Shown: in pieces, positions 16,854-24,200 of the stretch | How the letters are laid out: each line of letters starts with the position of its first letter | Numbering within the stretch: the first letter of the stretch is position 1 | Origin: Burkholderiales bacterium | GTDB lineage: Bacteria > Pseudomonadota > Gammaproteobacteria > Burkholderiales > SG8-39 | Length of the DNA stretch: 64,000 bases | Reading direction: 5' to 3' | NCBI GenBank assembly: GCA_014860395.1 | Contig: JACZJU010000102.1 | Span: 808-64,807 of the forward strand | The notes under the pieces: model-generated | Database searches by the model: none | The model's input: the letters and a program-made list of their open reading frames with translations, nothing else | Told to the model about the DNA's origin: nothing | Position numbers and translations under genes: made by a program

Positions 16854-17651
16854 ATGAAGATCGCTATTGCAGGCAGCTCAGGACGCATGGGCCGCAGCCT
16901 GATCGAGGCAGTGCTGTCGGGCAAGGATCTGAAGCTGTCCGCAGCGTTGGACGTCGTCGGAAGCGCATACCTGGGCAAGGATGCAGGCGAGGCCCTGGGC
17001 AGCGCCTGCGGCGTTGCGGTCAGCGCCGACTATGCCGCCGGCATCGCCGCGTCCGACTGCCTGATCGACTTCACGCGGCCCGAAGGCAGCCTGCTGCATC
17101 TGGACGCCTGCGTGAAGGCGGGCACGAACATGGTGATAGGTACGACCGGCTTCAGCGCCGAGGGCAAGCAGCGCATCGTCGCCGCAGCAAAGCAAATTGC
17201 CATCGTGTTTGCGCCGAATATGGCCATCGGCGTCAATGCCACCTTCAAGTTGGCCGAGGTCGCGGCGAAAATCCTGGGCGACGCCTATGACGTCGAAATC
17301 ATAGAGGCGCATCACCGGCACAAGGTCGATGCGCCATCGGGGACGGCGCTCAAGCTTGGCGAAGTAGTCGCTGCGGCGCTAGGCCGTGACCTGAAAAACT
17401 GTGCCGTGTACGGGCGCGAGGGCGACACCGGCGAGCGCGACGCCAAGAGCATAGGTTTCCACGCGATTCGCGGCGGCGATATCGTCGGTGAGCACACCGT
17501 GATGTTTGCCGGGAGCGGCGAGCGCATCGAAATCACGGTGCGCTCGCAAAGCCGCACGACCTATGCAGCGGGTGCCCTGCGGGCTGCGCGCTTCCTCAAG
17601 GGCAAGGCCTCGGGACTTTACGACATGCAGGACGTGCTCGGTCTGCGCTGA
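16854..17651 (+). CDS. dapB: 4-hydroxy-tetrahydrodipicolinate reductase
   Basis: [14 protein letters not shown] (NAD(P)-binding), [15 protein letters not shown] and [12 protein letters not shown] motifs. 265 aa. Confidence 0.96.
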
Positions 17652-17679
17652 ACGGGCGCAGCCCGGCGTAAAAGCCCAT

Positions 17680-17748
17680 GCTGCGCGATTCCTGGAGGGA
17701 AAGACGTCGGGTCTTTACGGTATGCAGGACGTGCTTGGCCTGAAGTAA
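17680..17748 (+). pseudogene. Degenerate second copy of the last ~22 codons plus stop of dapB
   Basis: 54/69 nt identical (counted by hand) to 17583-17651, offset 97 bp. Encodes AARFLEGKTSGLYGMQDVLGLK* versus the genuine [22 protein letters not shown]. Confidence 0.8.
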
Positions 17749-19081: not shown

Positions 19082-22303
<3,222 letters not shown>

Positions 22304-22465
22304 TGGTCTCCAACTAACTCAGAGTTGATAGAATTGGCGAAGAGCGGGACGGGAAAGGGTCCCTCCCGCTTCCTTGGCACCCCCTTTTTCCGTTGGTTAG
22401 GGGTTTTTCCCTGGCCGAAGACAGCTTGTTTGCTTCCGGCTGGCCCGACTTAGGATTGAACGAAC

Positions 22466-22942
22466 ATGAGCAAGACTCCCCTTACGGTCAAGGGCGCGGA
22501 GCTGTTGCGCGCCGAACTGCAGCGTCTGAAGACGATAGACCGGCATAGCGTGATCGCCGCGATCGCCGAGGCGCGCTCGCACGGCGATCTGTCGGAGAAC
22601 GCCGAGTACGACGCGGCCAAGGAGCGGCAGAGCTTTATTGAAGGGCGGATCGCCGAAGTCGAGAGCAAGCTCGCCAATGCGCAGGTGATCGACCCCAAGC
22701 TGCTCGACGCTGACGGGCGCTGCGTGTTTGGCTCGACCGTGGACCTGCAGGAACAGGCAAGCGGTGACAAGGTGACCTACCAGATCGTCGGTGATGACGA
22801 GGCCGACATCAAGCACGGCAAGATTTCCATCGGCTCGCCTATCGCGCGTGCGTTGATCGGCAAATACGCGGGCGACGTGGTAGAGGTACAGGCTCCGGGA
22901 GGCGTACGCGAGTTCGAAATAATCGATGTACGCTACGAATAG
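22466..22942 (+). CDS. greA: Transcription elongation factor GreA
   Basis: [43 protein letters not shown]. 158 aa. Confidence 0.96.
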
Positions 22943-23152
22943 CGGGAGTCGCCCGTGTTCGTAAATTCGGTCGCGGGCGACGTGGTCGAGGTACAGGCTC
23001 CGGGAGGCGTGCGCGAGTTCGAAATAATCGATGTACGCTACGAATAGCGGTAGTCGCCCGTGTTCGTAAAATTGGTCGCGGGCGACGTGGTAGAGGTACA
23101 GGCGCCGGGAGGCGTACGCGAGTTCGAAATTTTCGACGCGCGCTACGAATAG
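22838..23152 (+). repeat. 105-bp tandem repeat x3; unit 1 is the 3' end of greA
   Basis: TAG stops at 22942, 23047 and 23152, exactly 105 bp (35 codons) apart. The last 72 nt of units 1 and 2 differ at 2 positions. Units 2 and 3 are ~90% identical (94/105, counted by hand). Confidence 0.92.
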
Positions 23153-23171
23153 CGCGCAAGATCGGCTCGAC

Positions 23172-23528
23172 CTACTCGCCCTGGTAGCTTTGCTTCGTTC
23201 GGCGCGGCGGCTTGCGCACGGCGCGTTTCTTCGGCGCGGGCGTGGTCGCTGGCGGTTCCAGATGTTCACGGTACACGACCAGTATCTTGCCGATGTGCTG
23301 CACCGGGGAGGCGCCGGTTCGGTTGCAGATTTCGCCGAGCAGTGCCTGGCGCAGGTCGCGGTCGTCGCCTGTGACGCGTATTTTGATCAGCTCGTGCGCC
23401 TTTAGGCTGGTTTCAATTTCCTTGAGCACCGCAGCTGACAGGCGTTCGTTTCCCACCGTGACCACGGGCCTGAGGGCGTGAGCTCGTGCTTTGAGCAGCT
23501 TGCGCTCGGCGGGAGAGAGGGATTTCAT
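23172..23528 (-). CDS. yhbY: Ribosome assembly RNA-binding protein YhbY (CRM domain)
   Basis: MKSLSPAERKLLKARAHALRPVVTVGNERLSAAVLKEIETSLKAHELIKIRV with a basic C-terminal tail. The ATG at 23528 lies inside an over-extended ORF-track entry (23172..23897). Confidence 0.88.
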   Translation of the reverse strand: MKSLSPAERKLLKARAHALRPVVTVGNERLSAAVLKEIETSLKAHELIKIRVTGDDRDLRQALLGEICNRTGASPVQHIGKILVVYREHLEPPATTPAPKKRAVRKPPRRTKQSYQGE

Positions 23529-23573
23529 TTTGAATGCTATCGCAAAGTCTAATTGTAACAGCCTGAGCCGGAA

Positions 23574-24200
23574 ATGAGCCGCAGCAAGACGAGCAAGGCG
23601 TGGATGCGCGAGCACGTCAACGATCCTTATGTGCAAAAGGCCAGGGCCGAGGGCTATCGGTCGCGCGCCGCGTATAAGCTCTTGGAATTGGACCGGAAAG
23701 ACCGGCTGCTCGCGCCCGGGAAGCTGGTGGTCGATCTGGGCGCGGCCCCCGGGGGTTGGTCGCAGGTGGCGGCAGCAAAGCTCGGCGCCAGGGGCCGTTT
23801 GGTTGCGGTGGACATACTGCCGATGGAGCCGTTGCCGGGGGTGCATTTCGTGCAAGGCGATTTTCGCGAACAGGCCGTGCTCGATGCGCTGATCCAAGCC
23901 TTGGGCGGGAGCAAGGCGGACCTTGTAATCTCCGATCTCGCCCCCAATATCTCAGGTATCGGCGTAAGCGACCAGGCGCGAGCCATGTACTTGGCCGAGT
24001 TGGCGCTGGAATTTGCCCGGCAATGCCTGAAACCGGGCGGCTCGTTGGTGGTCAAAGTGTTTCAGGGAGCCGGATTCACGGAATTTTTGACGGCGATGCG
24101 CAAGGCTTTTGCCAAAGTGGGGTCGCGCAAGCCGGAAGCCTCGCGCGGACGTTCGAGCGAGATGTATTTGCTGGGGAAGGGTCTGAAATCAGGCGTATAA
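23574..24200 (+). CDS. rlmE: 23S rRNA (uridine2552-2'-O)-methyltransferase RlmE (FtsJ)
   Basis: [44 protein letters not shown] (SAM motif), [10 protein letters not shown]. Confidence 0.95.

Follow-up and report, generated by a model that had tools for sequence, protein, structure and literature searches.

A copy-number-variable tandem repeat at the 3′ end of greA in an uncultured betaproteobacterial genus

In the genome studied here the 3′ end of the greA gene is followed by a tandem array of 105-bp units, each of which contains a copy of the gene end. The array is a real repeat of variable copy number and not a new kind of system. We regard it as probable that the array is a minisatellite (VNTR-like) which originated from the greA 3′ end by duplication at a microhomology, was reshaped by recombination and is not translated. 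All positions given below refer to the window, which is the whole stretch of 64,000 nucleotides that was analysed.

Results

The greA gene (22466..22942, + strand; ORF list, Pfam) encodes an intact transcript cleavage factor of 158 aa. Its product matches the Pfam model GreA_GreB_N (E 4e-29), and its GreA_GreB C-terminal domain covers model positions 4-77 of 77. The orthologues are also 158 aa long in 20 of 20 genomes of the same genus. The genuine stop codon of greA is the first TAG, at 22940-22942. The gene yhbY (23172..23528, - strand), which is convergent with greA, encodes a CRM-domain RNA-binding protein (Pfam CRS1_YhbY, E 9e-25; tblastn in relatives). The genes carB, rlmE and ftsH are likewise found near the array (ORF list, Pfam). 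The stop codons of greA and yhbY are separated by 229 nt, of which 210 nt belong to the array. The array takes up most of the convergent spacer, as a first-pass annotation of this DNA had stated.

A single array with a period of 105 bp was detected by TRF at 22867-23154 (2.7 copies, 92% matches, 0% indels, score 499). Its units are closed by TAG stops at 22942, 23047 and 23152, which are spaced by exactly 105 bp. The first-pass annotation had recognised this spacing and described the greA end as triplicated from 22838 onward in in-frame tandem units, each ending in TAG. The in-frame, TAG-closed 105-bp units stand, but the triplication has to be revised: the array holds 2.7 copies and not three full ones. 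The homology to greA begins at about 22867 and not at 22838, from where the sequence continues with ordinary greA codons for 29-33 nt. Each extra unit consists of a 33-nt spacer module, here called S, and a copy of the final 72 nt of greA; this composition was missed in the first-pass annotation. Derivation of the whole 105 nt from coding sequence was considered and rejected, since the first 33 nt of the formerly claimed unit 1 do not resemble S above background; in this comparison 1 to 141 other sequence windows score higher, depending on the genome.

The live copy, unit 1 (22867..22942, + strand; TRF, unit alignment), comprises the final 23 codons and the stop of greA together with 4 nt, CGCG. 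It is followed by the first copy of module S (CGGGAGTCGCCCGTGTTCGTAAATTCGGTCGCG; 22943..22975, + strand), the 3′ end of which is the CGCG junction microhomology. The silent gene-end copy of unit 2 (22976..23047, + strand) is 72 nt long and has its own TAG, the whole unit occupying 22943-23047. The live unit 1 and unit 2 align over 76 of 76 positions with 2 mismatches, both synonymous and at third codon positions; the near-identity of unit 2 with the genuine gene end had been noticed before. The second copy of S (CGGTAGTCGCCCGTGTTCGTAAAATTGGTCGCG; 23048..23080, + strand) carries an in-frame TAG at 23051-23053, which is the second codon of unit 3 (CGG TAG). The silent gene-end copy of unit 3 (23081..23152, + strand) again has its own TAG, and the whole unit extends over 23048-23152. 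Unit 3 is the most diverged, with 6 differences from the live end, two of which change an amino acid (I to F, V to A). Relative to unit 2 it shows 11 differences over 105 positions, in line with the identity of about 90% that had already been ascribed to it together with the early TAG. The last unit is followed by a terminal spacer of 19 nt (CGCGCAAGATCGGCTCGAC; 23153..23171), which extends to the yhbY stop and in which no copy of S is recognisable (alignment P = 0.26; comparison with the sister genome G006).

The repeat and the S module are present only at the greA locus when up to 5 mismatches are allowed. S was also considered as a dispersed REP- or MITE-like element; this was rejected because the genome holds no second copy at 5 or fewer mismatches. 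In a reversed-sequence control none of the 3593 ORFs of the genome reaches one quarter of the score of the greA locus. Chance is thus excluded as the source of the greA array.

Several further ORFs overlap the array (ORF list). The long antisense ORF (22397..23269, - strand, 290 aa), with a nested ORF of 106 aa inside it (22839-23159, - strand), matches no Pfam family. It is opened by the repeat and by the high G+C content and is spurious, as had been assumed. On the + strand, a mini-ORF of 30 codons starts with a GTG in S (22955..23047), and a second mini-ORF is found at 23060-23152. In the relatives neither of them is preserved as a reading frame, with GCG in place of GTG in G005, G007, L062 and L064. 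If the extra units were translated, the hypothetical peptides would read RESPVFVNSVAGDVV... and MFVNSVAGDVV.... The 34-residue extension predicted earlier for readthrough of the first TAG agrees with the translation.

The relatives belong to an uncultured betaproteobacterial genus and are represented by species-level metagenome-assembled genomes (MAGs, G numbers), with one genome per species, and by metagenome contigs (L numbers). Outside the genome studied here, the junction between S and the gene copy was found in six species-level MAGs, produced by different studies with different assemblers, and in six of the metagenome contigs. One unit is present in G006 and G002 and two units in G010, G014, G017, G005, G007, G001 and L061. 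Three units are present in the genome studied here (G000, count from the assembly) and in L062, an independent metagenome contig of 426 kb. The contig L064 starts inside its array and contains at least three junctions and at least four units. The VNTR behaviour that had been predicted is seen as 1, 2, 3 and at least 4 units, the variation being observed between species-level lineages only. The array is absent in 14 of the 21 species with greA, and at least 11 of these 14 have no recognisable S. Its state is scattered on the local tree (1350 columns adjoining the locus, backbone unresolved) and requires at least six changes; a single clade with the duplication was rejected on this ground. The period is 106 nt in G001 and a multiple of three in all other lineages. 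That the array is shared and dynamic across the genus, and that its copies evolve in concert with the live end, had not been seen in the first-pass annotation.

The origin of a unit can be followed in a pair of sister genomes. G010 has exactly one 105-nt unit more than its sister G002 and otherwise corresponds to it. In G010 the junction reads ...TCGCG/GGCGAC and its counterpart in the gene ...ACGCG/GGCGAC (breakpoints marked by slashes). Both S copies are kept in G010 and are 31/33 identical. In G006 and G002 S is found single and unduplicated as an ordinary spacer. The prefix CGGGAG of S in G000 occurs otherwise only in the sister G006, which implies that S is native there. G000, G007 and G001 carry no S copy after the last unit, so that a simple duplication of gene end and S needs in these lineages either a later deletion or an arrival of units by recombination.

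The silent copies share 93.9% identity with the live end found in the same lineage, compared with 85-86% for the live ends of other lineages. The mismatches between copies and live ends are distributed over codon positions 1/2/3 as 1/2/43 (43 of 46 at the third position), although these counts are not independent events and the 13 in L061, where two units differ at 13 synonymous sites, may represent one recombination. The codon differences are synonymous in 41 cases and non-synonymous in 4. The share of third positions roughly fits the ~88% expected if the differences derive from functional greA alleles. Four of the five codon changes private to copies, that is, found in no sampled live end, are synonymous; although alleles are thinly sampled, this might point to selection acting directly on the copies. 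The copies and live ends follow a concerted pattern. The live end and its copy in G005 agree at 72 of 72 positions, including a lineage-specific Glu-to-Ala codon, and the terminal S copy of this genome is heavily diverged, as would fit an old array subject to conversion. Lineage-specific amino-acid changes are common to all units in G010, G014/G017, G001 and L062. Such sharing indicates that the units are of local origin or were converted locally.

At codon positions 1 and 2 the inter-lineage identity is 98% for unit 2 and 97% for the live end. The S modules located between units show a mean inter-lineage identity of 0.84-0.87, versus 0.58-0.67 for the third codon positions of greA. The spacer after the last unit decays, while the inter-unit S stays conserved. 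Since S is conserved above the level of synonymous sites, pure neutrality is insufficient, and either a function of the first S or a recent horizontal spread is needed. Contig L062 is recombinant. Its greA body is 96.5% identical to that of G007, but units 1 and 2 belong to another type and unit 3 is hybrid. In register, the array of L062 adjoins an unrelated spacer type of ~330 nt that is found in G016, G003 and G021. L062 thus shows a clear import of units between lineages.

A possible long-range helix (22866..22958, + strand) is formed by ACGCGGGCGAC (22866-22876, codons Y-A-G-D) and GTCGCCCGTGT (22948-22958, in S) and encloses the final 23 codons of greA. This helix of 11 bp is formable in 11 of 11 lineages (RNAalifold consensus), with 95.9% of cells paired and one compensatory change, a result equalled by 94 of 500 shuffles. 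According to the MFE folds, a junction hairpin is located at 22948..22981, where GTCGCCCGTG pairs with CGCGGGCGAC together with 3 inner pairs, and the second copy of the hairpin is located at 23053-23086. These hairpins arise through the duplication, form on both strands and have no U tail. Every junction brings one hairpin of 13 bp, with modest folding z-scores of about -2. Any effect of the array would consequently fall on the 3′ region that the greA and yhbY transcripts, being convergent, have in common. The consensus scan revealed no terminator-like site on either strand of 22943-23171. The only match of the Rfam scan of 22000-24000 was a chance-level microRNA model (E 0.34; 20 bits versus a gathering score of 57).

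The duplication of gene ends is not restricted to greA. Copies of their own end within 400 nt downstream are carried by 9-11 of the 3593 ORFs of the genome, versus none in the reversed-sequence control, and at least 8 other genes have duplicated ends like greA. This recurrence was missed in the first-pass annotation. The other repeats have offsets of any phase (97, 110, 113, 130, 142), and their mismatches are distributed over the codon positions as 7/5/33, with the same third-position bias. Because repeats out of phase show it as well, the bias needs no in-frame translation. In some of these genes the gene end is followed by a hairpin element and then by the gene-end copy, in an order conserved in several species. 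The dispersed hairpin E1 was considered as an element that generally inserts with duplication of the gene end; this was rejected, as only 2 of its 28 copies are flanked by gene-end repeats. The data suggest that the genome generally tolerates gene-end duplication events.

Discussion

We propose that a 105-bp segment, composed of the final 72 nt of greA and the first 33 nt of the spacer, was duplicated in tandem. The duplication would have occurred by slipped or illegitimate pairing at the short CGCG microhomology, which is seen in the junction contexts (...AAATACGCG/GGCGAC in greA and ...AAATCGGTCGCG/ at the end of S). The 11-bp inverted repeat around the 72 nt may have aided slippage. Because the duplicated segment contains the stop codon, greA remains intact after the first unit and the extra units are harmless. 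Unequal crossover or slippage would then alter the number of units, from 1 to at least 4 across the lineages, and gene conversion or unit turnover would hold the silent copies close to the live end of their own lineage. Homologous recombination, with the gene body as the left and the gene-end unit as the right homology, would transfer units between lineages and place them before unrelated native spacers. Together, crossover, conversion and recombination between lineages can account for the almost exclusively synonymous differences between copies and live ends without any translation. The array is probably near-neutral. The anatomy of the array, its junction, the varying number of units, the concerted pattern and the recombinant contig L062 are observed in the sequences, and near-neutrality and the molecular mechanism of every step are what we infer.

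Four other explanations have to be weighed against the proposed minisatellite. The array could be an assembly artefact, with strain variants strung together or the number of units mis-resolved. The genome is a metagenome-assembled genome of 336 contigs with 4% estimated contamination, units 2 and 3 might in theory represent alleles, two unit boundaries have 39 identical nt in register, and the L064 contig breaks inside its own array. However, the spacer is joined to internal gene sequence, which is beyond the invention of any assembler, and the same junction is found again in another 12 assemblies, which represent diverged lineages and were made with different assemblers. Three units are also present on the independent 426-kb contig, the three units of the array are mutually distinguishable, and their boundaries share only the 39 nt. 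Furthermore, every period among the intragenic tandem repeats of this genome is divisible by three, as would be expected for real selected sequence but not for an artefact. An artefact is accordingly very unlikely. A further explanation is that the extra units are translated under purifying selection, either by readthrough of greA, which would give a GreA whose C-terminal beta-hairpin is repeated, or as peptides of 30 aa from the GTG codons in S. The high identity of unit 2 at codon positions 1 and 2, the 41 synonymous versus 4 non-synonymous differences, a GGAG located 6 nt upstream of the GTG at 22955 in this genome and a period divisible by three in all lineages but one would fit this explanation. 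Against it stand the GCG in place of the GTG codon in four lineages, the 106-nt period of G001 with its shift of phase, the in-frame TAGs in unit 3 of this genome and in every unit of L064, and the stop codon itself, which differs between lineages (TAG, TAA, TGA). In addition, no tRNA with a stop anticodon (suppressor) is found among the 43 tRNAs, and the out-of-phase gene-end repeats of the genome have the same third-position bias. The readthrough-extended GreA at which the first-pass annotation had hinted finds no support in these observations. Translation of the extra units is unlikely, and a translated product under purifying selection is extremely improbable.

The remaining two explanations assign the array an activity. 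In one, the 105-nt unit is a mobile 'target-healing' cassette that inserts at codon -24 of greA by a dedicated mechanism, gives the gene a new end and displaces the old end downstream. This would explain why the S-type units in L062 precede a native gene end and an unrelated spacer, the last unit being native-like, and why the two units of L061 differ at 13 synonymous sites, as if from two lineages. The conservation of the inter-unit S across lineages next to lineage-specific terminal spacers, the scattered distribution of the array on the local tree and the genes with a hairpin element between gene end and copy in several species point in the same direction. However, S is the single native spacer of G006 and G002, and G010 equals G002 plus one unit with both S copies, which is the pattern predicted by local duplication. 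S is native also in G000, as judged from its CGGGAG prefix, lineage-specific amino-acid changes are common to live end and copy, S is not dispersed in the genome, and E1 is only rarely flanked by gene-end repeats. L062 itself can be explained by ordinary homologous recombination, for which the gene-end unit serves as the right homology and no new enzyme is required. The cassette as a whole is improbable on this evidence. The other explanation regards the array as a selected 3′-end regulatory array, in which S and the hairpins act as a terminator, an insulator or an RNA-stability element and the copy number tunes the expression of greA and yhbY or curbs antisense readthrough. It is consistent with the S right after the live stop, which is conserved above the synonymous level in all S-bearing lineages including those with a single unit, and with the decay of the redundant terminal S copies. 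The Y-A-G-D/S helix is formable in all 11 lineages with one compensatory change, on both strands a stable hairpin of 13 bp comes with each junction, and a mycobacterial VNTR is reported to correlate with the expression of the adjacent gene, a possible influence on neighbouring genes (PMC2734929). On the other hand, the covariation is not significant as judged from the shuffles, the array contains no U-tract terminator, the folding z-scores are modest, and no Rfam family matches. The 14 species without the array, most of them without a recognisable S, and the copy number, which is not conserved, also speak against a regulatory array. Such a function for the array as a whole is improbable.

The greA array can be compared with several known systems. 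Like other bacterial minisatellites and VNTRs, which consist of tandem intergenic units of 40-100 bp beside gene ends and vary in copy number between lineages, it is composed of head-to-tail units, with a period of 105, and the number of units varies between related genomes. MIRUs contain short reading frames, and the start and stop codons of these frames overlap with start and stop codons of the adjoining genes. They constitute a dispersed family of about 41 loci, whereas the greA unit is found at one locus only and is derived from the last 23 codons of the gene. The variation seen in the greA array is that between species-level lineages, with one genome per species. Among the minisatellites, the mycobacterial MIRU-VNTR loci are the closest counterpart (Supply et al. 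1997, 2000, cited through PMC2734929). In the literature we found no description of bacterial duplicated gene ends with synonymous-only divergence, only general VNTR/MIRU work (PMC2734929).

The array also resembles the products of slipped misalignment in its GC-rich CGCG microhomology, its unit of ~100 bp, its flanking inverted repeat and the later expansion, contraction and conversion between repeats. Slipped-misalignment duplications and RecA-independent exchange between close direct repeats have reportedly been reviewed by Lovett (2004, Mol Microbiol). The alleles of G010 and G002, filled and unfilled, differ by one unit and have CGCG at the breakpoints. Laboratory duplications of this type are unstable and transient, whereas the greA array has persisted, diversified across the genus and moved between lineages. 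Integrative elements that bring a replacement end and insert at the 3′ end of tRNA or protein genes lead to a similar outcome, in which a complete gene is followed by its displaced old end with synonymous differences, as in L062. The arrangement of a proximal incoming end and a distal displaced native end is seen in L062 but not in the pairs G010/G002 and G000/G006, in which S is native. Unlike these elements, the greA array has no integrase, cargo or att-like dispersed site. Its insert is 105 nt long and holds no gene, neither a recombinase gene nor att sites were found with it, and S is not repeated elsewhere in the genome. The concerted evolution, through gene conversion, of a gene with an adjacent partial pseudocopy is similar in its shared lineage-specific substitutions and its coding-like filtering. 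The greA repeats comprise only 72 nt and are 33 nt apart, and conversion between them is deduced and not observed.

The greA locus illustrates clearly, in a natural setting, how a tandem duplication across a stop codon can be tolerated, can last throughout a genus and can change in concert with the live end. The 'non-coding' copies show a coding-like substitution pattern that could pass for translation, which calls for caution with conservation-based gene finders. Gene annotation should pass over both the extra units and the long antisense ORFs. The copy number at the locus could also be used to mark strains within this uncultured betaproteobacterial genus.

The recurrent gene-end repeats, some of them around dispersed hairpins, the conservation of S and the imported units of one contig together hint that a more general process acts at gene ends and may be stimulated by hairpins resembling terminators. 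A more far-reaching reading, which we think unlikely, is that a gene end with its hairpin spacer belongs to a general class of 'portable gene-end modules' that stack and spread between species. The conserved end of a housekeeping gene would permit the installation of such a module before the native end of any relative, by host recombination or by a hairpin-directed mechanism, and the displaced old ends would be fossils. If this were true, the at least nine gene-end duplications of the genome would be products of the same process. The process at gene ends merits a systematic survey.

Structure of the array behind greA

The greA gene (22466-22942, + strand, 158 aa in the ORF list) is followed by two further stretches, both of which terminate in ...GTACGCTACGAATAG or a variant of it. 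In Tandem Repeats Finder this region gives a single array (22867-23154) of 2.7 copies with a period of 105; matches amount to 92%, indels are absent and the score is 499. The first-pass annotation described a triplication of the greA 3′ end in 105-bp units. The repetition itself is borne out by this result and by the unit alignment. Unit 2 is indeed nearly identical to the genuine gene end, with 2 mismatches over the last 76 positions. Unit 3 has 11 mismatches to unit 2 over 105 positions and starts with CGG TAG, in agreement with the approximately 90% identity and the early stop ascribed to it; it shows 6 mismatches to the live gene end over the last 76 positions. The extent given to the first unit does not hold. 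Its initial 29 positions are mismatched to the other units at 20 sites, and in a sliding-window test its initial part was no closer to the 33-nt spacer module, S, than many other windows. The array is therefore composed of the live end of greA (72 nt, with 4 nt of extra homology), followed by two units, each consisting of S (33 nt) and a 72-nt copy of the gene end. After the last unit, a 19-nt terminal spacer leads to the stop of the convergent yhbY gene. Pfam confirmed greA with both domains, the C-terminal one complete up to the last of the 77 model positions, as well as yhbY and rlmE/ftsJ; the Pfam search with the 290-aa antisense ORF gave no match.

The 72 nt are enclosed by an 11-bp inverted repeat, ACGCGGGCGAC (codons Y-A-G-D) and GTCGCCCGYGT in S. 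The helix can be formed in all 11 of 11 lineages; its covariation is weak: a single compensatory change is seen, and 94 of 500 shuffles perform equally well. Following duplication, every junction can form a 10+3-bp hairpin on either strand, which has no U tail, and a consensus scan of the array revealed no terminator.

Distribution of the array and its probable origin by duplication

The array was compared among 23 species representatives of the genus, all of them uncultured Betaproteobacteria/Burkholderiales MAGs obtained in various studies with various assemblers. One of these betaproteobacterial MAGs (G001, locus L068) is deposited as 'uncultured Enterobacteriaceae bacterium', apparently a mislabel. 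The array is present in 7 of the 21 representatives having greA, and a junction-pattern scan of metagenome contigs identified 6 further contigs. Among these, L062 carries three units on a 426-kb contig, and L064 starts inside the array with at least 3 junctions, hence at least 4 units. The junction, in which the spacer is joined to internal gene sequence, is identical in all array-bearing assemblies and is therefore not an invention of an assembler; its recurrence in genus MAGs and metagenome contigs rules this explanation out. In the genome under study the repeat and S are confined to the greA locus (336-contig assembly searched). The two unit boundaries have only 39 identical nt in common in register, so that, judged from the sequence, a miscount of its three units is unlikely.

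Several types of greA-yhbY spacer occur across the genus. A single S without duplication is found in G006 and G002, S-based arrays in the array-bearing lineages, and other short spacers in G018, G015, G004, G013, G012 and G020. G009, G022, G003, G021 and G016 have a hairpin-rich spacer of about 330 nt that is unrelated to S. This spacer (loci L010, L013, L018, L021 and L023 in the five species; also L062:4771-4832+) carries a number of long, perfect palindromes, such as CAACCGTGTTTT..CGGATGAAAAGCGCATCCG..AAAACACGGTT, and may represent a structured RNA or some small mobile element.

The species G010 corresponds to its sister G002 plus exactly one 105-nt unit, with both S copies kept (31 of 33 positions identical). 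The breakpoints, after ...AAATACGCG and before GGCGAC in the gene and after ...AAATCGGTCGCG in S, have CGCG in common. Together, these observations represent the classic footprint of microhomology-mediated tandem duplication, through which the array probably arose.

Concerted evolution and transfer of units

The VNTR-like variation anticipated in the first-pass annotation is found between species-level lineages, which have from 1 to at least 4 units. Sister pairs are unequal (3 units in the genome under study versus 1 in G006; 2 in G010 versus 1 in G002), and the duplicated state requires at least 6 changes on a local tree of 1350 columns with an unresolved backbone. Lineage-specific amino-acid changes of the live end are also present in the silent copies of the same lineage: G005 has Glu to Ala, G010 has Val to Leu, Asp to Glu and the TAA stop, G014 and G017 have Phe to Leu, G001 has Ile to Met, and L062 has Gln to Arg. 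The identity of a copy to the live end of its own lineage is 93.9%, versus 85-86% to other lineages. In G005 the units are identical at 72 of 72 positions and the S copy behind the array is strongly diverged; the duplication is therefore an old one, with homogenisation of its units.

The contig L062 is direct evidence of the import of units between lineages. The greA body of L062 shares 96.5% identity with that of G007, and units 1 and 2 belong to another type. Unit 3 is a hybrid, with a 5′ half like unit 1 and a 3′ half like the G007/G021 end, and behind the stop the array meets, in exact register, the ~330-nt spacer of G016, G003 and G021 (69-84% identity). S-type units have thus come to lie ahead of a native gene end with the other spacer. 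Homologous recombination with the right-hand crossover inside the gene-end unit accounts for this arrangement. The two units of the metagenome contig L061 differ at 13 sites, 13 of 13 synonymous, which is consistent with the same process.

Both as the module between units and as the unduplicated spacer of G006 and G002, S is 84-87% identical between lineages; in the same comparisons the third codon positions of greA are 58-67% identical. The spacer behind the last unit is, in parallel, decayed or lost. Pure neutrality does not account for this combination. One possible reason is that the S right behind the live stop is functional, for instance through a 3′ structure of the RNA or as a protein site. 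The other is that horizontal spread, of the kind seen in L062, brought in units younger than the lineages themselves.

Question of translation

The divergence of the copies is coding-like. When each copy is compared with its own live end, the arrays together show 1/2/43 mismatches at codon positions 1/2/3; 41 of the codon differences are synonymous and 4 non-synonymous. Against a 50% share the third-position excess has a binomial P of 2e-10 (7e-7 without L061), values that make the case look stronger than it is because the events are not independent. Between lineages, unit 2 is 98% identical at positions 1+2 and 63% at position 3, as is also the case for the live end. From these figures, a third-position share of about 88% is expected if the differences were imported from functional greA alleles, which is close to the observed 93%. 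The first-pass annotation had hinted at readthrough into an extended GreA; several observations speak against translation of the extra units. The period in G001 is 106 nt, the CGG TAG of unit 3 also opens every unit of L064, and the array stop codon is TAG, TAA or TGA depending on the lineage. A stop anticodon is absent from all 43 tRNAs. The GTG start of the 30-codon mini-ORF in the genome under study is GCG in G005, G007, L062 and L064, and other gene-end repeats of this genome show the same third-position bias with offsets in any phase. For these reasons it is highly improbable that the extra units are translated.

Comparison with known systems

With its unit number varying between species-level lineages, the greA array matches what defines a bacterial minisatellite/VNTR, and it also matches a microhomology-mediated tandem duplication. 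The features of a MIRU-type family dispersed over the genome, of an integrase-borne element, of an intrinsic terminator and of programmed readthrough are absent from it; it fits no Rfam family. The literature searched provided general VNTR/MIRU background (PMC2734929) and no description of a greA-type pattern. The array is real, well documented and essentially an ordinary structure. Of greater interest is that untranslated copies evolve in concert in a coding-like manner, that S is conserved and that units have demonstrably been transferred between lineages. The boldest reading, in which the greA unit exemplifies a general class of portable gene-end modules, is rather improbable.

Gene-boundary repeats elsewhere in the genome

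For 3593 coding-like ORFs, a copy of the last 75 nt was sought within 400 nt downstream. Eleven ORFs scored at least 16 and 9 at least 20, with 0 in the reversed control. The copies lie at offsets of 97-250 nt in all three phases, with mismatches at codon positions 1/2/3 of 7/5/33. The last 30-135 nt are found again within 60-250 nt downstream at no fewer than 8 other genes: C80:2697-3212, C209:8482-9394, C252:13777-15016 (- strand), dapB (C171:17661-18549, window 16854-17742), C23:891-2234, C34:7152-8001, C298:7238-7703 and C148:6056-6822 (- strand). Two gene-end repeat structures are kept in at least 5 other species of the genus.

The DNA that separates a gene end from its copy always contains a strong hairpin, which in two cases is E1, a dispersed ~40-nt element (CAAGGGGGC...GCCCCCTTG) with 28 copies in the genome, only 2 of them flanked by repeats. 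E1, of the form GACTTGGGGGATC..CAAGGGGGC(nnn)GCCCCCTTGTT (for example C34:7920-7960 and C252:13825-13870), occurs in dozens of copies in each genus member and looks like a bidirectional terminator or REP-like element. A second hairpin family, E2 (GCATCCCCG...CGGGGCCCC), forms the intervening DNA in three arrays; 4 of its 11 copies are in tandem arrays (periods 132, 111 and 142) in spacers behind genes. E2 sites of the form GGTCGCATCCCCG...CGGGGCCCCTGCTC are located at C80:3100-3260, C191:31478-31816 and C298:7516-7788.

Gene starts have a similar number of upstream copies as gene ends have downstream; both boundaries of genes are thus places where short tandem duplications build up. A nearby upstream copy of the first 150 nt was found for 12 ORFs scoring at least 16 (control 0), among them C190:17040-17615, C311:19901-21199 and C202:48398-49804, all on the - strand. 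Tandem repeats inside genes all have periods divisible by three, the outcome expected of selection on real sequence. In four places, the 3′ end of a long ORF is closely followed by a tandem array with a period in the range of 243-249 nt (C47:4888-5475, C184:10445-10958, C298:21838-22427 and C283:1981-2629); these arrays may constitute one repeat family.
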